Shown here piece by piece: positions 53,706 through 64,000 of a stretch of 64,000 bases of DNA. The translations under genes were made by a program, and so were the position numbers. Under the pieces are notes generated by a model. That model ran no database searches, had not been told where the DNA came from, and saw only the letters and a program-made list of their open reading frames with translations. The stretch's first letter is position 1. Each line of letters opens with the position of its first letter. The DNA comes from an uncultured Gemmatimonadales bacterium (GTDB taxonomy: Bacteria; Gemmatimonadota; Gemmatimonadetes; Gemmatimonadales; GWC2-71-9): NCBI GenBank assembly GCA_963828735.1, contig CAWHFW010000005.1, positions 2,400,001 to 2,464,000 of the forward strand, given 5' to 3'.

Positions 53706-55379
53706 CTACTCCATCGCCAGCGTCACATCCGACTTCGCCCACACCTTCTTGAACTGGATCGCGACGGAATCCGCGTCACGGCCCCGCCCCTGCGCGCGGA
53801 GCGCCTCGGAGAGTCCGTAGAGCGACCAGCCGTTGTTCGGGAACTGCACCAGGTCCTGCCGGTACGCCTGCTCCGCATCCCTGGTGCGCCGGGCGGCCAG
53901 GAGGACGGCGCCGAGCTGCTGGCGGAGCGGAAGTGGCCAGGCGGTGGGCTCATCGTAGACCAGATCATCCTCGATCGCGATGCCATGCGTGAAGCTTCGC
54001 ACGGCCTCGTCGGTCTTGCCGGCTCTCGCCGCGATATTGGCCGCGAGGTGGCGCTCGGCGATCTGGAGCAGCGCCCGGCTCGAGTTGAGGTTCGCCATCT
54101 GCTCGGGCGGAGTCTTCGCCGCGATCGCGCTCACGCTGTCGAGCGCTGCCCGCGCCGAGTCTGCCTTCCCCTTCGCCGAGAAGGCGAGCCCGCGCGTGTA
54201 GTACCAGATCCCGGTGGTGTAGCGGAGCCCAGGCGCCGGCGCGGGCTCCGCCAGGATGTCGTCCCATCGTGAGAAGCGGGCGAGCGTGAACAGCACCACC
54301 GGCGAGTAATACTCCAAGGGCGGGATCATGTGAACCACGTCCGCTGGAACCTTCTCGACGATCGTCCGGGCCGCCGCGAGTGCCTCGGCGCTCCGCCCCA
54401 TCATCTCGAGCGCCTCCCACATGACGTGGTAATTGTGGGGCACGTATCCGAGCGGATACACCCCGGTCGGGTGACGCGAGTCGAGATACTGCTGGTCCAC
54501 GTGCACCGCAGTCGCGTTGTGATCGACCGCCTCGTCCCAACGTCCGAGCCGCATGTAGATGTGCGTCGGCATGTGGACCAGGTGACCAGCGCCGGGCACG
54601 AGGCTGCCGAGCCGCTCGGCGCACGGCACCGCCTTGGCCGCGAAGTTGGAGGCCTCGATCGCGTGGATATAGAAGTGGCACGCACCCGGGTGGTTCGGAT
54701 TGCGCTTCGTCACGTGCTCCAGGACCGTCACCTGCTCCATCGTGCTCGGCGCGAGCGCCTTGCCCGCGTTGGTCCAGTAGTTCCACGGCCGCAGGTCCAT
54801 GAGCGCCTCGGCGTAGAGCGTGGCGGCGTCGTCGTCCTTCGGGTAACGGCGGGACACCTCGCCGATGGCCTTGGCCCAGGCCGAGTCCTCGGCGGCTCGG
54901 CTGGCGGCGGGCTCGGCGACGTAGCGCGCCTCGAGCGCCTTGATGTATGCCTGCTCCCTGGGACTCACGCCGGGAGCGAACCGGACCGCCTGCCGCAGCG
55001 CCGCCCACGCGGGACGCACGGCCGCGGTGTCCATCGGGAGGTTGATGTTGGGGCCCAGCGCGTAGGCGATTCCCCACCAGCACATCGCGCAGGTGGAGTC
55101 CTCCCGGGTGCCCTCGGTGTACGACTTGATGGCCTCGTCGTGGTTGAAGCCGTAGGTGAGCCGGAGGCCCTGATCGAAATACTTCTGGGCCACGGGCGAC
55201 CGGGTCGTGATCGCCATGTGGTAGGTGCCCAGGTTGTCGTAGAGCGGCGTCCGGCCGCCCGACGAGGAGTCGGCCGGAGCCATCTCCATGTCGTGGTTGT
55301 GGCCTTCGTGCTCCTGGGCCGCCAACATCCCTGCCGCTGTGCCCATCATCGCAACCGTCACCAGCCATGTCCCGCGCAT
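53706..55379 (-). CDS. Secreted TPR-repeat protein
   Basis: Signal peptide; FDQGLRLTYGFNHDEA, HPGACHFYIH, HLVHMPTHIY, PNNGWSLYGL. Confidence 0.85.
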   Translation of the reverse strand: MRGTWLVTVAMMGTAAGMLAAQEHEGHNHDMEMAPADSSSGGRTPLYDNLGTYHMAITTRSPVAQKYFDQGLRLTYGFNHDEAIKSYTEGTREDSTCAMCWWGIAYALGPNINLPMDTAAVRPAWAALRQAVRFAPGVSPREQAYIKALEARYVAEPAASRAAEDSAWAKAIGEVSRRYPKDDDAATLYAEALMDLRPWNYWTNAGKALAPSTMEQVTVLEHVTKRNPNHPGACHFYIHAIEASNFAAKAVPCAERLGSLVPGAGHLVHMPTHIYMRLGRWDEAVDHNATAVHVDQQYLDSRHPTGVYPLGYVPHNYHVMWEALEMMGRSAEALAAARTIVEKVPADVVHMIPPLEYYSPVVLFTLARFSRWDDILAEPAPAPGLRYTTGIWYYTRGLAFSAKGKADSARAALDSVSAIAAKTPPEQMANLNSSRALLQIAERHLAANIAARAGKTDEAVRSFTHGIAIEDDLVYDEPTAWPLPLRQQLGAVLLAARRTRDAEQAYRQDLVQFPNNGWSLYGLSEALRAQGRGRDADSVAIQFKKVWAKSDVTLAME

Positions 55380-55529
55380 CGTCAGTCTCCTTGGCGTGTG
55401 GCCATTCTACTGCTCACCGCCAACCTACGGCGGCCGCGCAAGAGGTACTTCGCCCAAAACTACCATTCGCTCCATGCGCAGGTCATGGCCGAAAGCGGCC
55501 ATGGACACCCCCGCGCACGGGTGACGCCA

Positions 55530-55650
55530 CTACAGTAGTCCCGCCTTGGCGGCCCAGGCAACGGCGGCCGCCCGGGAGGGGAAGTCCTGTCTTCGTGAGG
55601 ATGTTGGTCACGTGCCGGTGGATGGTATGCTCACTCAGCTCCAGGCGAGC
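55530..55650 (-). pseudogene. LuxR-type HTH remnant
   Basis: ARLELSEHTIHRHVTNILTKTGLP, frameshift, SRAAAVAWAAKAGLL*; in-frame stop upstream and no start. Confidence 0.65.
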
Positions 55651-55814
55651 CGGCCGGCCTCCAGGCTATGATCGGCGGGGTTCGTAGGAGAGCGGTGGCC
55701 AGAGTGGGGGTCTCGGAGGCTCCGGGACTCCTGAGAAGTATCGCGGTGATGCTCCTTACGGCATGACGGCGGGGGCCGCGCCAGATTGGCGCATCCTTTG
55801 ACCGGGGAGCCCCA

Positions 55815-56102
55815 ATGGCTGGGAGAACGAAGCGGTTAGCGAAGGCGGTGGTCGTGCTCGCGACGAGCGCGGCGGTACGGAAGGCGGTGCAGAAGGCAGC
55901 GGAGGATCCGCGGGTCAGGAAGCAGGCCATCAAGGTCGGTGCCGTCGTAGGAGCAAAGGCCCGGGCCGCGGGCAGGGCGGCTAGCAAACGCGCGACCGCG
56001 CTTGCACAGGACGCGGGCACGCGCATGGGAAAGAAGCTTGCTGGACCCCGGAAGACCGCGGGGAAGAAAATCAAACGGCTGGGCAAGGTGGTCGCGGGCT
56101 AG
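55815..56102 (+). CDS. Small basic Lys/Ala-rich hypothetical protein
   Basis: GGGAG RBS; 95 aa; hairpin downstream. Confidence 0.6.
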   Translation: MAGRTKRLAKAVVVLATSAAVRKAVQKAAEDPRVRKQAIKVGAVVGAKARAAGRAASKRATALAQDAGTRMGKKLAGPRKTAGKKIKRLGKVVAG

Positions 56103-56128
56103 AGCGGGATCATGGGTCGGGAGTTGCG

Positions 56129-56156
56129 AAGGGGCGTGCCGCGGCACGCCCCTTTT
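56129..56156. terminator. Intrinsic terminator between convergent genes
   Basis: AAGGGGCGTGCC-GC-GGCACGCCCCTT followed by TT. Confidence 0.65.
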
Positions 56157-56188
56157 CGCCTCCTGTACCCACGGCCCGCTGGATCGCC

Positions 56189-57388
56189 TTAGCCGCGGTC
56201 GAAGCGAAACAATTCGGCGTCCGGATTCGGCCGGCCGAGGAAGAGGTCGAGCAGGATTCCCGCCGCGATCCAGCTGAACGTGATGCCGTTGCCGCCGTAG
56301 CCCAGCGCGAAATAGCCGTGCGGGAACTGCCGCGCGGTCCCGATGCAGGGCAGGCCGTCGGGCGTCTCGCCGAAGGTCCCGCCCCACCGCCAGTCCGCGT
56401 CGCCGCGAATGGCCGGAAACATCTCCCGGAACTGCCGCTCGAGCCGCTGACAACGCTTGACGAGGAGCACGTCGCGCTTGTGCGCCCGGGAGAAGGGCGT
56501 GTCGGCGCCGCCCACGATGGCGCGGCCATCGGCCGACATGCGGGCGTAGAAGTAGGGGCGTGCCGTCTCCCAGATGAGGCAGCGGTCCTCCCCCCACCCG
56601 TCGGCGCCGTCGAGCGGCTCCGTCGCGAAGGCGTAGGTGCTGAGGAGGCGCACGAGCGAGCGGTCGAGGAACTCGGGCGTCTCGTAGCCGGTCGCGAACA
56701 CCGCCTTGCGAGCGTGCACCCGTGCCCCGCCGGAGGTGCGGAGCTCGACACCCTGGCGCTCGCTATCGTAGCCTACCACCGGCGTACGGTCGTACACCTC
56801 GAGCCCCGCGGCGGTCGCCTCGGCCAGCAGCTTGTGGGTCAGGCGGTAGGCATCGACCTCTCCCGCGACGGGCGAGAGCAAGGCGGCCGGCCGCGAGAAC
56901 GAGAAGCGCTCGCGGATGTCGCGCTCCGAGAGCAGCTCGAGCTCGATGCCGGCCGTGCGGCGGGCAAGCCACTCCTGCTCGAGCACCCGGCGGTCGCGAC
57001 GGCGGCTCGCGAGATACAGGCTCCGGGTCGCGCGCCAGCCACACGCGTCGCCGGCCAGCGACGCGATGCCGCGCACCGCATCCACGCAGAGCTGGTAGCT
57101 CCGAACGGCGCGGTCAGCGCCGACGCGCTCGATCAGGTCCACGAGGTGGGTGTCGATCTCGTACTGAATGAGGGCGGTGCTCGCGGCGGTGCTGCCGCGG
57201 GCGATCTCGCGGGATTCGAGCAACACCACGGCGATGCCCTCCCGAGAGAACCGATGCGCCACGAGCGCGCCGGTGATCCCGCCGCCGATGACGGCGACGT
57301 CGCACGTGCGATCGCGATGGAGGCGGGGGTACACAGCGGGCAGGCCCACGAGGGTCGGCCAGAGCGGGGTGCCACTCGTCAGGTCCAT
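56189..57388 (-). CDS. FAD-dependent oxidoreductase (DAO family)
   Basis: IGGGITG, GSTAAST, ATGY, TPDGLP, GYGGNG. Confidence 0.9.
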   Translation of the reverse strand: MDLTSGTPLWPTLVGLPAVYPRLHRDRTCDVAVIGGGITGALVAHRFSREGIAVVLLESREIARGSTAASTALIQYEIDTHLVDLIERVGADRAVRSYQLCVDAVRGIASLAGDACGWRATRSLYLASRRRDRRVLEQEWLARRTAGIELELLSERDIRERFSFSRPAALLSPVAGEVDAYRLTHKLLAEATAAGLEVYDRTPVVGYDSERQGVELRTSGGARVHARKAVFATGYETPEFLDRSLVRLLSTYAFATEPLDGADGWGEDRCLIWETARPYFYARMSADGRAIVGGADTPFSRAHKRDVLLVKRCQRLERQFREMFPAIRGDADWRWGGTFGETPDGLPCIGTARQFPHGYFALGYGGNGITFSWIAAGILLDLFLGRPNPDAELFRFDRG

Positions 57389-57563
57389 GAGTCACATACT
57401 GGCGCCCTGCCGGGAGGAGGCGCGGTGACGCGGGTCGCGGGGCGCCGATCGGCTAACCCGCGCGGCTGGTCGCCCAAGGCGGCGCCGTAACCGGAGGCGG
57501 CGTCGCTCGTTAGCGGGCGTCGATCGAAGTGGTCAGTGCGGAGCTTGGGGGCCGCATCGAGCG

Positions 57564-57592
57564 TTGACGGGCCTACCCCCGCCCGCTAGGTT
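57564..57592 (+). promoter_or_regulatory. Sigma70 promoter of the tRNA-Ala/tRNA-Gln operon
   Basis: TTGACG-N17-TAGGTT ending 25 bp before tRNA-Ala. Confidence 0.7.
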
Positions 57593-57616
57593 TACGGCCT
57601 CGCGGGACGAATCCCT

Positions 57617-57689
57617 GGGGCTGTAGCTCAGCTGGGAGAGCGCTGCAATCGCACTGCAGAGGTCAGGGGTTCGATCCCCCTCAGCTCCA
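57617..57689 (+). tRNA. tRNA-Ala(CGC)
   Basis: Acceptor GGGGCTG/CAGCTCC with G3:U70; anticodon arm CTGCA-ATCGCAC-TGCAG. Confidence 0.95.
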
Positions 57690-57708
57690 TGACAATCGAA
57701 GGCAGTAC

Positions 57709-57781
57709 TGCCCCTTGGTGTAACTGGCAACACGCCTGACTCTGGATCAGGAGAGTCCTGGTTCGAGCCCAGGAGGGGCAA
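57709..57781 (+). tRNA. tRNA-Gln(CTG)
   Basis: Acceptor TGCCCCT/AGGGGCA; anticodon arm CCTGA-CTCTGGA-TCAGG. Confidence 0.95.
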
Positions 57782-57782
57782 T

Positions 57783-57813
57783 GGCCGGTGCAATTGCACC
57801 GGCCGTTTTCTTT
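57783..57813 (+). terminator. Terminator after tRNA-Gln
   Basis: GGCCGGTGCAATTGCACCGGCC followed by GTTTTCTTT. Confidence 0.75.
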
Positions 57814-58041
57814 GGGGGGCCTGCTGGGGCCAGCCATGCCAACATGCCAGGAGCGCACGTGAGCGGTTCGTTCGTGCGGGCACGAAAGCGTTCATCCCTT
57901 TCTGAAACAATCCTCACCAACATCTCACCCCGTCTTATATCTCTGAAAGACACTTTGTACTTCCTCGAATTGTTGTCACCGTCGCGCGTTACACCGGCAA
58001 TAGGTCGCCGCCACGTTAATGACTCGAAAGACGGGAACACT

Positions 58042-59079
58042 ATGTCTCGACCAACGCTACTCGCCACCACGGTGGGCGGCCTCTGCCTGGCACTCGTGGC
58101 CTGTGAGAGCCCCTCCGGGGCTGGCCTCACGGAGCCAGAAACCAGAGGCCAAACGGCTCCAAGCGCAGCCGCCGCAGGCAGTGCTCTAACATTCAACGGC
58201 ACCTGGAGGACGATGCCCTCCCTTCAGCCGGCTCGCTGGCGGCATGCCGCGGATGTCCTCGGCAAGTCCATCGTCGTGGTTGGCGGGCTGAGCGGAGACC
58301 AACGGCAGGCCTTGAGCAGGGTCGACGCGTTCAATGTGGAGACGCGGACCTGGACTGCGTTGAAATCCTTGCCGATTCCGTTGTATGACGTCAACGGGGC
58401 GACCCCCGTCCAAGGCAAGCTTTACGTTTCAGGAGGGAGATCGTCACCGGACGAAGACTGCGCAAAAACTCTGTTCGTCTATGACCCCGCGACGAACTCC
58501 TGGGCTCGCAAGGCAGATATGCCATTCAAGGGGTGTGTCGGGGTCCAAGCTCACGTTCACGGTCAACTCTACGTGTACACCTTCCCCCAATCACCGCCGG
58601 ACATAAGGCTCTTCGCGTCGTACAATCCCAAGACGGATAAGTGGGTGCGCCGGCCCCTCCCCAAGGGCTTGCACTTCGCTTACCCAGTGGCCGGCGCAAT
58701 CGACGAGAAATTCTACCTCACTAGCGGAGAGGCGTTCACAGGACTTTCCGATAGTGAGCTCGAGGTCTATGATCCAGCGACCAGAACGTGGACCACGAAG
58801 AGTCCTATGCCCAGTGGACGGTCCGTTGCGTCCGCCGCCGTCCTGCATGGGAAGCTCTTTGTGGCCGGGGGTGTAGTGGACCGGAACGGCCTGGCGATTG
58901 TGACCGGCGCCATCGAGGCATATGACCCCCTGAGCGATACCTGGGCCACCGGACCGTCGATGCCCACTCCGAGGGCGCACGCAGCTTCCGCGTGGGCAGG
59001 TGGGAGGTTCTTCGTCATCGATGGTATTAGAGGTGGTCCATTGAGCAGCCAGGTCGAGGCCTTGTCGACGGCGTACTAG
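58042..59079 (+). CDS. Kelch-repeat lipoprotein
   Basis: Lipobox LVAC; about six repeats of the GKLYVSGG..YDPATNSW type. Confidence 0.88.
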   Translation: MSRPTLLATTVGGLCLALVACESPSGAGLTEPETRGQTAPSAAAAGSALTFNGTWRTMPSLQPARWRHAADVLGKSIVVVGGLSGDQRQALSRVDAFNVETRTWTALKSLPIPLYDVNGATPVQGKLYVSGGRSSPDEDCAKTLFVYDPATNSWARKADMPFKGCVGVQAHVHGQLYVYTFPQSPPDIRLFASYNPKTDKWVRRPLPKGLHFAYPVAGAIDEKFYLTSGEAFTGLSDSELEVYDPATRTWTTKSPMPSGRSVASAAVLHGKLFVAGGVVDRNGLAIVTGAIEAYDPLSDTWATGPSMPTPRAHAASAWAGGRFFVIDGIRGGPLSSQVEALSTAY

Positions 59080-59120
59080 TACAGGTCAACACAGGCTCAC
59101 AACAGGCGACGTAGGCAAAG

Positions 59121-59150
59121 GGCCCCACTGGTCGCTGAACCAGTGGGGCC
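59121..59150 (+). terminator. Hairpin after the Kelch gene
   Basis: GGCCCCACTGG/CCAGTGGGGCC 11-bp stem. Confidence 0.55.
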
Positions 59151-59381
59151 GCTCGCGGCCAAACATCACCTCATTCCATGACGGTAGAGCTTAGCAATTC
59201 CAGCCCCTCGATGAGCTGAGTCTCACACACCCCTCGGCTCACTTCAGCACCTCACAGGCGCTCGGCATCGACGGCGAGCGGGTGAACGCCCACGAGCGGG
59301 AACGCCTGGCCAGCGGCCCGCTCTACCGTCAACGTGGAGCATGGCGGCTCTCCGCTGGGCCGACTTCAGCAAACTGTGACA

Positions 59382-59541
59382 TTTGAGTGGGTAAAGTACG
59401 GCAAAGTCGAGCATTCAAGTGGCCAAACTCCAGCATCGGGTGACACGAACTCGCGTAAAGGCTGCAAGTTGCTGGAATTCGGGGTGTTCTACTGCCCCCT
59501 CTGGATCAGGAGAGTCCTGGTTCGAGCCCAGGAGGGGCAAT
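59382..59541 (+). repeat. Conserved arm + tRNA-Gln 3' half (att-like), copy A
   Basis: 59499-59541 identical to 57740-57782; 59382-59480 similar to 62213-62310. Confidence 0.9.
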
Positions 59542-59837
59542 CAAGCCCGGCAACGACTTAGCTGTTGCCGGGCTCGGCAAGGCCGTTGGGGGATCATCCT
59601 CACGCGGACTCGATCAAGCAAGAGCGGGGTACCTGCAGCGGAGGCTAGTGTACCGCTGCTATCAGGCGTTATCTGGATCCGCGAGCCTGACACACTGGGC
59701 GCTTCACCATTGCCGCAGCCAGCACCCAAGCCCAAAACAGAGCTGCCAAGTATTCCCGTAAGGCGGTGCACAAGCTGGCGGCGCGACACATGAGCCGAGA
59801 TCAATTCTTTCCAAAACGAAGTAAGAAGGCTGTCCAT
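59541..59837 (-). pseudogene. Probable truncated Tat-lipoprotein gene fragment
   Basis: AAGGGAGG RBS; SRRQLV twin-arginine motif and GAGC lipobox; ORF ends at the att junction. Confidence 0.4.
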
Positions 59838-60359
59838 CTGACCCTCCCTTGAAGGAGTTAGCGAGGTAGGACATTTCCTGTGACTTCGTTTCCCACTGTT
59901 CGTCTGGCCGATCAACCATAGGTATGTCAGAACACTTCAGACCATGACTGAGTCAGCTCAAGCAATTGGAGGGGATACGCGGGCCCAGTCCATGCTCGAC
60001 TTCATGGCGCTTTGATGGTACAGGTAACAGTATGGGCAAGCCGCGGAAGGTGGACGACACGGCTACGCGGCTCACTGTGAAGATCGGCGAGATCCACGGC
60101 CATAAGGCGAACCTCAAAGCCGGCTGGTGGGTGCAGGCGAGGCTAGCCGTGGCTATTTGCAGCCCTGTGTGAGTTCCTCTGTGAGTTAGTTCCAGCGTTA
60201 AGTTCCCCGGAAAGCATGCCACAAGCTTCCATCCGGCCCTCTCAGCTGGTAAGCCCTCCTGAGGCAATAGGCGGCCAAGCGCCGGTCTACTGGCTTGCCG
60301 ATGCCGCTTCTACTTGGGATCAGAGAGATCGGTACCTCACCAACCCGTAGATGAGCTGT

Positions 60360-60616
60360 CCGGAACCGACCTAGGGCTATCTCCGCAACCTTGGCATTCC
60401 CGGTGGCCCGATTCATCTGAGCATCAGAGTGTCCAGCCGTGCGTTCACGGAGTCCATCAACCGCATCTGCTGCCGCATGTCCATGCTCATCATCATGCCG
60501 TGATGCATATTGTCCGTGGCATATGCGGCCGGGTTGCTGCGCGGCCAGTGGGTGGGGTGGGTTCCGAGGAGCAGCGTCAACAGAGCCGCTCCGAATGCTC
60601 CGACCTTCATAGTCAC
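60360..60616 (-). pseudogene. Met/His-rich secreted protein remnant
   Basis: Signal-like N-terminus, MHHGMMMSMDM..MDSVNARLDTL, apparent continuation MNRATGNAKVAE in a shifted frame. Confidence 0.4.
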
Positions 60617-60690
60617 AGCTCCTTATCCCGACAATGTGGCGCCGCCGAATGGATGCATCCGGCGGCGCCTTGATACCCGGGCAACGGCGC

Positions 60691-61804
60691 TTATGGAATG
60701 TACTGCAGGTTGTCAGCAGGCGCGGGGACTCCGCCCACCAGCTCGATACGCGGGCTGCCATTGCGCAGGACCTTGGTTCCCGCGGCGTTGACCACAGGGC
60801 TCGGCAGCGAGGCCCGCCGGGTCCACGCGTCGGTCACCGGGTCGTACACGATGGTGACATCCAGTTCCTGGAGCTCATTTGCGATCGGATCGTACCGAAG
60901 GCCGCCCATCACGTACAGCTTGCTACCCAGCACGGCCGTTGCCACACCGCTGCGTGCCAGTCCCAGTGGATTCTTGGCCGTCCACCGGTTGGTGGCAGGA
61001 TCATAGACGGACAAGCGTCCCTTATTTCCATAGTCTCCTCCCATTACGTAAAACTTTCCCCCAATCACCCCTCCCGCGAGCGGTGTCCACACCATCTCAT
61101 GCGCCGTCGCCGCGGGAAACGGCGGAGCGAGCGTGACCCACCGGTCGGTTACCGGGTCGTAGCGGAACAACCGTGGACCGGTGAGGTCGCCTTCGCAGAC
61201 GTCATCCTCAGTGTAGTACACGCGCGAGGAGCACCGTGTGACCACGTAGAGCTTGCCGTTGATCACGCCGGTCACACCGTTGGATCCCACCGTCCAGTCC
61301 TTACGTGGGACCTCCGATCGTCGGAAGGTCGTGCTTCCGGGTCCAGGTATTCGTGCCGGGATCGTACACGTAGAGCGCCCTAGTGGGAGGAGCGTCTCCG
61401 CTCGTTGAGAACCCGCCGGAGACGTAGATCTTTCCGTTGATCACGCCGGCGCCGTTGGACGACGCCAAGGGAACGGGGAGCGGCCGCCGCTCGGTCCAGG
61501 TATTGGTGGCGACATTGTAGGCCGTGACCTTCCTCAGCGGGCTCACCGGGTACACATCGGTAAATCCGCCTATCGCATAGACGATCGACTGCCCGGCTGC
61601 GTTCGTCACTGTAGCCACAGCAAGATTTCTCCGCACGCTCGGCAGGTTTTTCCGTGTGATCCAGCTGTTGCTGGCAACTACCAACTCGGGCCCGCTCAGC
61701 GTGGGCTCCGCTGGCTGGGTCGGCTCGGTTGAATTATCGCTGCACGCCGCGACCCAGGCCATGCTGAGGGCCAGTGCGCCGGGTACTAGTGAACAGTATC
61801 TCAT
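60691..61804 (-). CDS. Kelch-repeat lipoprotein, frameshifted near 61300
   Basis: MRYCSL..VAAC lipobox; Kelch repeats GVINGKIYVSGG..YDPGTNTW continue across two frames. Confidence 0.82.
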
Positions 61805-62212
61805 TGCGGTCTCTTCTTCCTTGGCGGGAGCGGCGCTCCCAGCAACCACGTACTCGGCGAGCGATTCACGCCAGCCGCTGCCTGATGCTCTAGGCAGGGC
61901 AATTATGCATCAGAGGCTCGGAAACGGTGGTGAGGTCCTGCTGAAGAATTCTTCATCCCTCCACCTTGCCCCCCGGGGTTCCTTGCAGCAACAATGAGCC
62001 GCACTCACCTCGGGATACATGCCCGGGTGTCCGGCGCCTGGTGCTTCATCGGCAGCGGGTCACGCATCGGAATCACAGCACCACCACTCGCAGCACCGGA
62101 GAACCTCCGAGGATCTTCTCAGTGCGCGGTACTGCATAATTGACGGTGCTGACACCGTGCGCATTCTACGAGGCTACAAGAAGTGTGGCTGCGGATCCGG
62201 CAAAGTACGACG

Positions 62213-62371
62213 TTTGAGTGAGTAAGTACGGGCAAAGTCCGGCATCCAAGCCGGCAAACTCTGGCAGCGGGTGACACGAACTCGCGTAAATGGTGGCAAG
62301 TTGCCGGAGTTTAGGCGGTTACAGCGGTCCCTCTGGATCAGGAGAGTCCTGGTTCGAGCCCAGGAGGGGCA
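62213..62371 (+). repeat. Conserved arm + tRNA-Gln 3' half (att-like), copy B
   Basis: 62331-62371 identical to 57740-57780; 23-bp CGGGTGACACGAACTCGCGTAAA shared with copy A. Confidence 0.9.
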
Positions 62372-62373
62372 CT

Positions 62374-62412
62374 GAAAGCGCCGCATCGGGTTTCCCCGGT
62401 CGCGGCGCTTTC
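62374..62412. terminator. Hairpin after att copy B
   Basis: GAAAGCGCCGC...GCGGCGCTTTC. Confidence 0.6.
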
Positions 62413-62485
62413 CCTATTTGCGGCTCATGGCGGAGCAGAGTAGCCGGCCGGTCGCGTACCCCTTGCGCTCCAGTTGCCAGGTGTG

Positions 62486-62501
62486 TATGATGATCATCAT
62501 A
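62486..62501. promoter_or_regulatory. Putative TetR operator 1
   Basis: Perfect palindrome TATGATGATCATCATA abutting the TetR start codon. Confidence 0.75.
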
Positions 62502-63094
62502 TGAGAGCCGCCACCTCGAGAGGACCCGCCCCCAGCCGTAAGGAAGCCACCCACGAGCGCATCGTGGAGACCGCCGCCCGTGCCATTCGGCGGAGCGGGT
62601 ACGATGGCGCTGGCGTGGCCGAGATCATGAAGGAGGCAGGCCTCACCCACGGCGGCTTCTACGCTCACTTCGACTCGCGCGAAGGGATGTTGGCCGAAGC
62701 GGCAGACCGGGCCGGCGCTGACACAGTGGCCTTCCTGACGCGGGTCGCCGCTGCGGCACCGGCCAAGCAGGAGCTCGAGGCCATGCTCCGCAGCTATCTC
62801 TCGAAGGAGCATGTGGCAGCCCTCGACGGCGGATGCGCCGTCGCCGCGCTCGGCTCGGAGATGCCACGCCAGTCGACCAAGGTGCGCCGGGCCGCCACCC
62901 GCCGGATCAAGGAGATGATCGATCTGGTCGCTCGCCAGTCGCCGGATTGGGGCCAGCCTGGTGCGCACCAGCGCGCGCTCGTCACCATGGCTACAGCGCT
63001 CGGAGCCTTGGTCCTGGCCCGCGCCGTGGACGACCCCAAGCTCTCCGATGCGGTGCGCGAGGCGGCCCTGAACCATCTCACCCGAACAGGCTGA
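62501..63094 (+). CDS. TetR/AcrR family regulator
   Basis: IMKEAGLTHGGFYAHFDSRE. Confidence 0.92.
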   Translation: MRAATSRGPAPSRKEATHERIVETAARAIRRSGYDGAGVAEIMKEAGLTHGGFYAHFDSREGMLAEAADRAGADTVAFLTRVAAAAPAKQELEAMLRSYLSKEHVAALDGGCAVAALGSEMPRQSTKVRRAATRRIKEMIDLVARQSPDWGQPGAHQRALVTMATALGALVLARAVDDPKLSDAVREAALNHLTRTG

Positions 63095-63130
63095 TACTAT
63101 GCGCCGGTGCCGGATTTGCGTTTGCCTAGG

Positions 63131-63150
63131 AATATGATGATCGTCATATT
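63131..63150. promoter_or_regulatory. Putative TetR operator 2
   Basis: AATATGATGATCGTCATATT, one mismatch from operator 1, upstream of the SDR gene. Confidence 0.75.
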
Positions 63151-63189
63151 GCAGTTGAAGAATGGACCCCAAGAGAAAGCGAGCACGGT

Positions 63190-64000
63190 ATGGCAGGCAA
63201 TCAGCAGCAGACTCGGCCCGTGGCGATCGTGACGGGCGTATCGGGAGGGATCGGCGAGGCCACCGCGCGGGCGCTTCACTCGGCCGGCTATCGGGTGTTC
63301 GGCACCTCACGCCGGGCGCCAGCGACGAAGTCGCCGGGGATCGAATACCTGGTGTGCGATGTGACCAGCGAGGAGTCGGTGCAGGCCGCGGTCGGTGAAG
63401 TGCTGTCCAAGGCAGGCCGCGTCGATCTCCTGGTCAACAACGCCGGGGTGGGATTAGTCGCCGGCGCGGAGGAGTCGTCGCTAGAACAGGCGAAGTCCCT
63501 CTTCGACGTCAACCTGTTCGGCCTGATTCGCATGACCAAGGCCGTCCTTCCCACCATGCGGAATCAGCGGGCGGGACGGATCGTCAACCTCAGCTCGGTC
63601 ATGGGGCTGATCCCGGCGCCGTTCATGGCCCTGTACGCAGCCAGCAAACACGCGGTGGAAGGCTATTCCGAGTCGCTGGACCATGAGATCAGGGGCTCGG
63701 GTGTCCGAGTGGTGCTGGTCGAGCCGGCTTATACCCGGACCGCTTTCGAAGGGAACGTCTACCAGGCAGACCAGCAGCTCGATGTCTACCGGTCGGCGCG
63801 AACGAATGCCGAGGGAGTTCTGCGGGATGGGATGAAAACCGCCGACACGCCGGAGCTGGTCGCGAGCGCTGTGGTGAAGGCCTCCACTGAGCTCAATCCG
63901 CGCCGCCGCTACACCGCAGGACGGGCCGCGCGCCAGATCAGTCTGCTCCGGCGCTTTGTTCCCACCGCGGCGTTCGACAAGAGTCTGCGGAAACAGATGC
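63190..64000 (+). CDS. SDR oxidoreductase; runs off window end
   Basis: Own translation: MAGNQQQTRPVAIVTGVSGGIG, NNAG, YAASK, EPAYTRT. Confidence 0.9.
   Translation, partial: MAGNQQQTRPVAIVTGVSGGIGEATARALHSAGYRVFGTSRRAPATKSPGIEYLVCDVTSEESVQAAVGEVLSKAGRVDLLVNNAGVGLVAGAEESSLEQAKSLFDVNLFGLIRMTKAVLPTMRNQRAGRIVNLSSVMGLIPAPFMALYAASKHAVEGYSESLDHEIRGSGVRVVLVEPAYTRTAFEGNVYQADQQLDVYRSARTNAEGVLRDGMKTADTPELVASAVVKASTELNPRRRYTAGRAARQISLLRRFVPTAAFDKSLRKQM

Follow-up and report, generated by a model that had tools for sequence, protein, structure and literature searches.

Integrase-less elements stacked at one chromosomal site are known from Streptococcus salivarius, where cis-mobilizable elements (CIMEs) measure 1.2–13 kb, gene-less microCIMEs measure 130–220 bp and, in the available portions of two reports, at most three elements stand in tandem (PMC5704250, PMC7563491). 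Here a row of 17 such units is described behind the tRNA-Gln(CTG) gene of an uncultured Gemmatimonadales bacterium (genome G000, 4.78 Mb). The stretch of DNA analyzed, referred to below as the window, is 64,000 nucleotides long (G000:C5:2400001-2464000). The locus is read, with a probability of roughly 0.56, as an accretion array whose small integrase-less units are moved by an integrase acting in trans. The array is real and larger than an earlier sequence-only reading of the window had noted, and its layout extends known CIME-like accretion.

As in the streptococcal ICESt1/ICESt3-type arrays of CIMEs and microCIMEs, attachment sites (att) have been kept, integrase and transfer genes have been lost and elements stack at one target (PMC5704250, PMC7563491, as far as the accessible text goes). 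Here, 15 of the 17 units are flanked by tRNA halves on both sides (one half shortened), and the array contains integrase remnants only: no PF00589 match, and no functional integrase or transfer gene among the open reading frames (ORFs) scanned. By anatomy the units would therefore count as CIMEs; their sequences show descent from integrase-bearing islands, which may or may not have been integrative and conjugative or integrative and mobilizable elements (ICEs, IMEs). The differences lie in number (17 units against the two or three elements of the S. salivarius composites), in the parents (integrase islands, with no conjugation genes found in the families searched) and in the gene-less units, which here are 67–88 bp long and sit at a second point of the tRNA, the T loop. 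The 21/24-nt inserts found at that point have no counterpart in the available parts of those reports.

The Islander collection, which requires an integrase and at least 2 kb of every island, includes, in a total of 3919 islands, 4 tandems with at least three members (PMC4383910, available text). Its islands have in common with this locus the tRNA with a displaced 3' fragment, anticodon-centred (A) and T-stem (J) sub-sites and a tyrosine integrase. The displaced fragments here have the same orientation as the tRNA and belong to sub-site A, but the integrase is intact in 0 of 17 units in G000 and 2 of the 127 units pooled below, and by the published rules the integrase-less ones would be filtered out. 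Another source, seen in part, puts att-delimited islands without integrase vestiges at 6% (10.64898/2026.01.13.699239). The tycheposon islands of Prochlorococcus, as the accessible part of their description presents them, are alike in successive integration at one tRNA, outward push, partial tRNAs, broken integrases and a conjugation-less host, but they encode an integrase, whereas the recently transferred unit described here has none (10.1101/2020.12.28.424599).

The sequence-only reading had likened the locus to an integron. Integron cassette arrays are polarized rows of small units with one recombination site each and an enzyme encoded off the unit. This likeness is retained as an analogy only. 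The best match to the integron integrase TIGR02249 in G000 reaches 94 bits against a cut-off of 265, the joints consist of a tRNA 3' half and a double-stranded arm and not of attC (no attC model was run), and several units are multi-gene and lie in either orientation. Neisseria minimal mobile elements exchange cassettes between conserved gene flanks by homologous recombination, the principal alternative mechanism considered for the present array, whereas the flanks here are repeated att joints of integrase origin. In E. coli, the tyrT repeats are another case of a tRNA 3' end duplicated together with hairpins. The TRIP1 repeats of E. coli were considered and, on the available part of their description, are unrelated (PMC10888264). 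No description of the array or of the T-loop inserts appeared in the titles and abstract openings searched, a scope that leaves out most subscription papers.

Seventeen units behind one tRNA-Gln gene

The anticodon of tRNA-Gln(CTG) is at tRNA position 34, which places the start of the anticodon loop at 57740, and the identity between the tRNA and its repeated 3' halves ends precisely at the first base of this loop (Table 1). The second copy aligns with the tRNA over 44 nt with one gap. An extra A follows window position 62370 in 4/4 public runs examined (4 of 20 listed runs were compared), so the assembly probably dropped a base there and the third tRNA 3' end is likely full length too. The halves are spaced 1759 and 2832 bp apart, in agreement with the unit sizes of about 1.76 and 2.83 kb first proposed. 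The three different hairpins reported behind the three tRNA ends were also recovered (−28, −27 and −31 kcal/mol in 50-nt windows); of these, the first alone passed a simple terminator scan. Rfam models run over 55000-64000 gave two tRNAs above threshold and nothing else.

Each repeated half is preceded by an arm of about 130 bp, and the sequences upstream of the two att copies are 82% identical over 173 nt. This arm, termed arm A, contains 12-nt repeats, three in direct orientation at spacings of 32 and 22 bp and one inverted, and a TGAG block that recurs at left ends beside integrase genes. The repeats and the block are putative binding sites for an integrase and accessory proteins. No coding potential or three-base periodicity was detected in the arm (0.82, 0.79, 0.79). 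Units 1 and 2 have a GC content of 56–65% in most 500-bp windows, against 69% for the contig.

Searched with a profile of arm and att together, G000 gave 26 matching places, 21 of them in the array or just distal to it and some of these past 64000, a clustering that speaks against chance. The array extends over 62.8 kb from the tRNA to C5:2520583 and comprises 17 att-to-att units of 1.2–7.3 kb, 16 of which end in arm A; two units share a joint that retains the arm alone. The TetR–short-chain dehydrogenase (SDR) block, suspected earlier to be a third unit, is unit 3. Over C5 2463-2555 kb, 71 ORFs were called, and 40 of them, leaving out kinase-like and most distal ORFs, were scanned against Pfam; their cargo functions are transport, redox, regulation and small enzymes. 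The Pfam scan also covered 9 window ORFs. Fainter arm/att pieces occur at C5 2533-2564 kb, and orphan copies at 517, 721-722 and 754 kb.

Arm A, queried without its tRNA part at E ≤ 1e-8, was found in 55/102 other genomes of the genus (including the unpublished genome G065). When the genome collection was scanned with an exact pattern, 63 stretches matched, 61 titled Gemmatimonadales or related ranks and two titled as other phyla. This distribution bears on the possibility, raised with the original proposal, that the repeats are an assembly artefact. The assembly is of the uncultured type with 5% estimated contamination, and no public contig among the matches listed bridges a whole att joint. 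Nevertheless, the repeats are short and diverged, the same architecture recurs in these relatives and stretches, and contigs of 4 studies agree at 99–100% with parts of units 1, 2 and 3, which makes an artefact hardly credible.

For comparison, 127 att-to-att units were cut from 45 array stretches of 43 genomes picked by arm or att matches, a choice that biases pooled counts towards arm A among genomes that are non-independent by kinship. Their median length is 3155 bp; 96 are ≤5 kb and 13 are >10 kb. In 22 tRNA-anchored arrays, whose rows are non-independent (G000 supplies 16 of 83), rank from the tRNA correlated with mismatches of the att copy (rho 0.37, n 83). It likewise correlated with the occurrence of T-loop inserts (rho 0.58, n 72), which are present in 1/21 units at rank 1 and 13/18 at rank ≥6. 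The decay of att grows with distance from the tRNA, and the array is polarized. The proposal of serial accretion by integration in the anticodon loop is upheld.

Table 1. Features of the window at the tRNA-Gln(CTG) locus (window positions)
Feature	Positions	Strand	Remarks
tRNA-Ala(CGC)	57616..57690	+	host gene immediately upstream of target
tRNA-Gln(CTG), intact	57709..57781	+	integration target; 3' half (57740 onward) recurs as the att core
Hairpin 1 and T run	57783..57812	+	by likeness, of the type of the terminator of relatives' 67-88-bp T-loop micro-units; truncated before micro-unit 3' end
Unit 1 cargo	58042..59079	+	Kelch-repeat protein, 345 aa
Arm A of unit 1	59370..59498	+	direct 12-nt repeats at 59370, 59402, 59424; inverted copy ends 59481; TGAG-type block
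att copy 1	59499..59541	+	tRNA-Gln 3' half, 43/43
Hairpin 2	59544..59574	+	family of the hairpin at the left end of the G019 integrase-bearing element
Decayed left-end block	60152..60185	+	TGTGAG repeats; resembles blocks beside integrase in G019, G070
Integrase remnant	60207..60401	-	C-terminal; tRNA-Gln-targeting tyrosine integrase family
67-aa ORF	60413..60616	-	Met/His-rich; no Pfam match
Unit 2 cargo	60691..61804	-	Kelch-repeat gene in two frames, break near 61290-61340; may be assembly error
Arm A of unit 2	62200..62330	+	
att copy 2	62331..62371	+	tRNA-Gln 3' half, 41/41
Hairpin 3	62374..62412	+	left end of unit 3; cargo next, without arm-type repeats
Unit 3 cargo	62474..63094	+	TetR regulator
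Unit 3 cargo	63190..64000	+	short-chain dehydrogenase; unit 3 ends beyond the window, at G000:C5:2464985

One public contig over 61097-61531, the region of the Kelch break, differs by one gap. In unit 3, a 17-nt near-palindromic repeat precedes both tetR (62486-62502) and the dehydrogenase gene (63133-63149) and is likely a TetR operator, a putative assignment.

Outside the array, two facing arm/att copies surround a dehydrogenase gene at C5:721337-722698 (L007), with no tRNA near and one arm split and partly inverted. Orphan att copies at C5:517255-517393 and 753655-753698 lie a few hundred bases behind tRNA-Lys(CTT) and tRNA-Lys(TTT). The G113 array holds a second, damaged tRNA-Gln 5' half (L145, position 12462). 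Arm+att matches in contigs titled Chloroflexota and Gaiellaceae (L055, L082) may reflect misbinning or wider transfer.

Integrase remnants and the islands at the same tRNA

A dedicated profile built from 119 family members found integrase matches in 7/17 units of G000 and 18/127 units overall, on the minus strand and near the left end of the unit; those of G000 have the expected strand and lie 36–903 bp from att. The window remnant covers 66 residues (profile E 3e-8; BLASTP E 2e-11). The remnants in 7/17 units indicate that the array units descend from integrase-bearing islands. The statement of the sequence-only reading that no integrase is present thus holds for intact genes but not for remnants. 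In unit 2, a decayed left-end block ahead of the integrase remnant suggests that this unit is probably a fusion of two.

Relatives hold integrase-bearing elements of 12–22 kb at the same tRNA site. In G046, which belongs to a different family, a 400-aa tyrosine integrase (PF00589) ends beside tRNA-Gln(CTG); its element is 22 kb long, has a right arm homologous to arm A and is followed by a 1.8-kb integrase-less unit with the same arm. The intact integrases among the 127 units are those of G046 unit 1 and G100 unit 1. The integrase of G102 unit 1 is broken, and that of G070 unit 1 has an internal deletion, in a unit that ends in arm A. All four of these genes (two intact, two near-complete) are first in their arrays. 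A search of 351 genomes of the order gave three best integrase matches (55–100%), all at tRNA-Gln(CTG); the other 27 integrase loci examined are mostly at Pro or Ala tRNAs, with one at tRNA-Gln(CTG).

A search of the rest of the genome for a tyrosine integrase had been suggested. PF00589 has 8 matches in G000, and neither these nor the dedicated profile revealed an intact cognate. A member of the family at C5:597390-598680 is frameshifted (four reading frames), has an upstream helix-turn-helix gene and converges on tRNA-Ile; it was rejected as helper. By eye, long ORFs of several integrase-bearing elements at tRNA-Gln(CTG) (L027-L028, L140, L246, L247) resemble defence methylases, helicases and ATPases.

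These features suggest how such an array could be built. Islands with a 390–420-aa tyrosine integrase would cross over in the anticodon loop of tRNA-Gln(CTG), each incoming island rebuilding the tRNA with its own 3' half and hairpin and displacing older units outward. The islands would then shed the integrase and most of their length, and adjacent units would fuse through deletion, so that 1–7-kb units closed by arm A and a tRNA half would remain.

Units shared between species and how they may travel

Unit 3, which is 2.65 kb long and starts at window position 62331, is 99.5% identical over its core to unit 1 of G122, with the same boundaries and unrelated neighbours; it has rank 3 in G000 and rank 1 in G122. 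The core DNA of the two hosts is 69.4% identical (8 segments, 14.2 kb; highest 73.9%), and the sharing of this whole unit between species is recent. Further pairs are unit 12 with unit 1 of G113 (96.1%; host background 75.6%) and unit 9 with unit 2 of G098 (94.6%). Two shared units stand in reversed order in G000 and G098, and a shared unit that ends in arm B in G000 ends in an arm B piece followed by arm A in G098. A grouping of seven units ('K1') as one lineage was rejected, both boundaries being common to G000 and G122 only.

Each unit might instead be the in-place relic of a large island, immobile since it shrank. Remnants of integrase genes in the units, the deletion fusion visible between arm B in G000 and arms B and A in G098 and the lack of a match elsewhere for most units all agree with such a graveyard. 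With the integrase remnants and the large elements of relatives, the earlier caveat that the units might be deletion remnants of large islands was half borne out. Two independent decays, however, would not yield the same 2.65-kb unit with the same boundaries at ranks 3 and 1 in such distant hosts. Unless the G000/G122 pair is an assembly cross-over, the graveyard is strongly disfavoured. The claim that the units are minimal non-autonomous mobile elements is supported in that at least some travel as small units lacking an integrase gene, as the 99.5% and 96% pairs indicate, and needs amendment in that the units are not free of integrase traces.

How small units travel is approached through their ends. 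Unit 3 lacks left-arm repeats and nevertheless lies directly at the tRNA in G122. Among the 31 units with a left end other than A, as assigned to our own motif classes, 19 carry right arm A and 3 have matching ends. The mixed ends of the 19 and the structure of unit 3 fit a system that would require the right arm and core alone. The most likely route for some small units is excision and reinsertion by the integrase of a passing helper island, with a single right arm and the core as sole requirement. The DNA would have entered by transformation or transduction rather than conjugation, and homologous exchange between repeated joints would additionally reshuffle the arms.

Alternatively, the units could be classical CIMEs moved in cis by an ICE or IME, which would insert next to them, excise jointly with them and later leave alone. 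The anatomy fits the definition in the available text of the CIME reports (PMC5704250, PMC7563491), and transient helpers could have been lost from the genomes assembled. Nevertheless, the one VirB4 family searched, PF03135, occurs in 1/103 genus genomes (control 1/14), two relaxase families are absent from G000, and the ORFs of the integrase-bearing elements of G046, G100, G191 and G170 resemble defence or unknown genes (by eye; Pfam scan of the integrase only). Mobilization in cis is thus very improbable. ComEC is present in G000. The serine recombinase PF07508 was not found in G000. Viral contigs contained nothing with the arm pattern or the G100 integrase, and a phage link was rejected.

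Several observations weigh against movement by a trans-acting integrase. No intact cognate gene exists in G000, as noted above, and within the genus the frame is open only in G100, those of G019 and G102 being broken and that of G084 cut by a contig end. No whole copy of unit 1 or unit 2 turned up in 102 relatives, where partial matches of 65–84% occur in 2 and 7/102. TetR-SDR cargo is present in 52/102 relatives, yet the other copies have differing boundaries and many of 30 loci have no att in the fetched flanks. No excised circle was seen, in public data consisting of short contigs unable to show one; candidate joints in the 4 public runs can be attributed to other att-hairpin variants, and 43-bp repeats are beyond the resolution of unitigs. 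The greater depth seen over unit 3 was left aside as evidence. The selection of arrays by arm or att matches also makes the pooled counts lean to arm A, and related genomes are not independent. Lastly, in the G000/G122 pair the arm differs at 9/135 sites against 13/2519 elsewhere, and 7 of the 9 lie within 44 bp of the core, a concentration that pure core-site recombination does not predict.

The last point brings forward an integrase-free mode of spread, in which the units would have originated as above and taken-up DNA would be joined by homologous recombination at the approximately 175-bp arm+tRNA joints. A second near-identical pair shows the same excess in the arm (19/135 against 107/2808 elsewhere). 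Moreover, core-proximal arms (32 bp) are slightly more alike within genomes (71%) than between them (65%; permutation p 0.004, 66 arms); over the whole alignment, no homogenization within genomes was seen (71% and 72%). Because of this excess divergence in G000/G122 and the likeness near the core, exchange between joints is taken to happen, and it may be the mover of units. The mixed unit ends, ComEC and the near absence of the VirB4 family are also in keeping with it. On the other side, 59/72 arms have their nearest match in another genome, and phased repeats and invariant blocks are kept across hosts, a pattern that fits selection for protein binding better than local homogenization. First-position units (in G122 and G113) offer just 43 bp of left homology, and polarity towards the tRNA is simpler with a site-specific enzyme. 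As sole mover, homologous exchange is considered rather unlikely, and movement in trans, as inferred here, remains preferred.

T-loop inserts and the meaning of the array

In nine att copies of G000 (C5:2468359-2520660, L001-L004), the T loop is interrupted between T and TCGAG by short inserts, single in copies nearer the tRNA and double in the six most distal. All 13 matches to the insert pattern in the genome fall within att copies. In the 45 stretches, inserts are present in 33/116 spare copies against 0/26 intact, tRNA-headed copies. The monomers are mostly 21 or 24 nt long and consist of T, a 4-bp stem, a loop and then GCC-TTC/TGC-GGC. Among 54 monomers parsed from 38 inserts (six inserts in part only), the first stem is perfect in 50, with five different, covarying sequences; the second stem is constrained by the search pattern itself. 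For the most part, each genome has its own insert sequence, which bears no relation to the hairpin downstream. At G098:27422 and G113:15670 an insert follows differing upstream sequence, which would restrict any conversion tract to the 43-bp half. L055 has four T-loop inserts in succession.

Longer elements share this plan. Of 25 short repeats, 24 are gene-less micro-units of 67–88 bp, made up of the last 19 nt of the tRNA, a terminator, the reverse complement of their own start and a mini-hairpin; the fold of their right junction is a stem with a single bulged T. They lie directly behind the live tRNA in 4/24 arrays, and 8/24 first hairpins are of micro-unit type, including that at window 57783. 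Micro-units are present in L018, L026, L011, L181, L183 and L185, the last with three consecutive ones. The junction motif occurs in 34/103 genus genomes (including G065), 22/401 phylum genomes and 0/93 genomes of family f2. No T-loop unit was recognized at other tRNAs of G000 among 136 loose matches read by eye.

Searches for Y1 transposases yielded no enzyme for the inserts. The Y1 HUH transposase PF01797 is absent from G000 and present in 50/103 genus genomes; with 0/30 loci at a tRNA, differing flanking palindromes and 1 incidental pattern match, a Y1/RAYT transposase was rejected, and the inserts do not qualify as non-autonomous elements of the REP/RAYT or IS200/IS605 kind. Its co-occurrence with the T-loop motif (24/34 against 26/69, p 0.003) is confounded by kinship. 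In L253-L282 the Y1 (RAYT-like) gene is mostly single-copy, often at the same locus and with its own flanking palindromes.

As extreme microCIMEs, the T-loop elements may depend on a T-loop integrase and have spread by conversion; alternatively, they may represent a separate system guided by hairpins. A more tentative proposal, possible but less likely than not, is that two non-autonomous systems are nested at one tRNA gene, one-armed cassettes and T-loop elements of 21–88 nt. DNA between a tRNA half and arm A could then be excised and reinserted by a visiting integrase, and the array would be a cross-species gene store without a resident enzyme. The elements (T, stem, variable middle, stem and 3-bp mini-hairpin) would be inserted at one T-loop point by an enzyme recognizing the bulged-T hairpin. 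The long form would supply a new tRNA 3' end and terminator and so be tolerated at the live gene, whereas the 21/24-nt form would ruin the T arm and survive in spare copies only. If this is true, the T-loop elements would be among the smallest site-specific mobile DNAs.

Integrase-less islands are usually viewed as dead ends, mobile only through a conjugative element. An integrase-less unit shared almost unchanged across such distant hosts, in a genus where the VirB4 family is nearly absent, contrasts with that view. One intact integrase (G100 or G046) together with one unit would make mobilization in trans directly testable against homologous exchange. Island finders that demand an integrase overlook such arrays, here with >60 kb of accessory genes. 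Along the array, the T-loop inserts can be read as a marker of age. They also point to a so far undescribed process by which very short hairpins come to be written into a single position of the tRNA. It is the length of the array, the pair of units shared across species and the unexplained T-loop elements that carry the interest of the locus.

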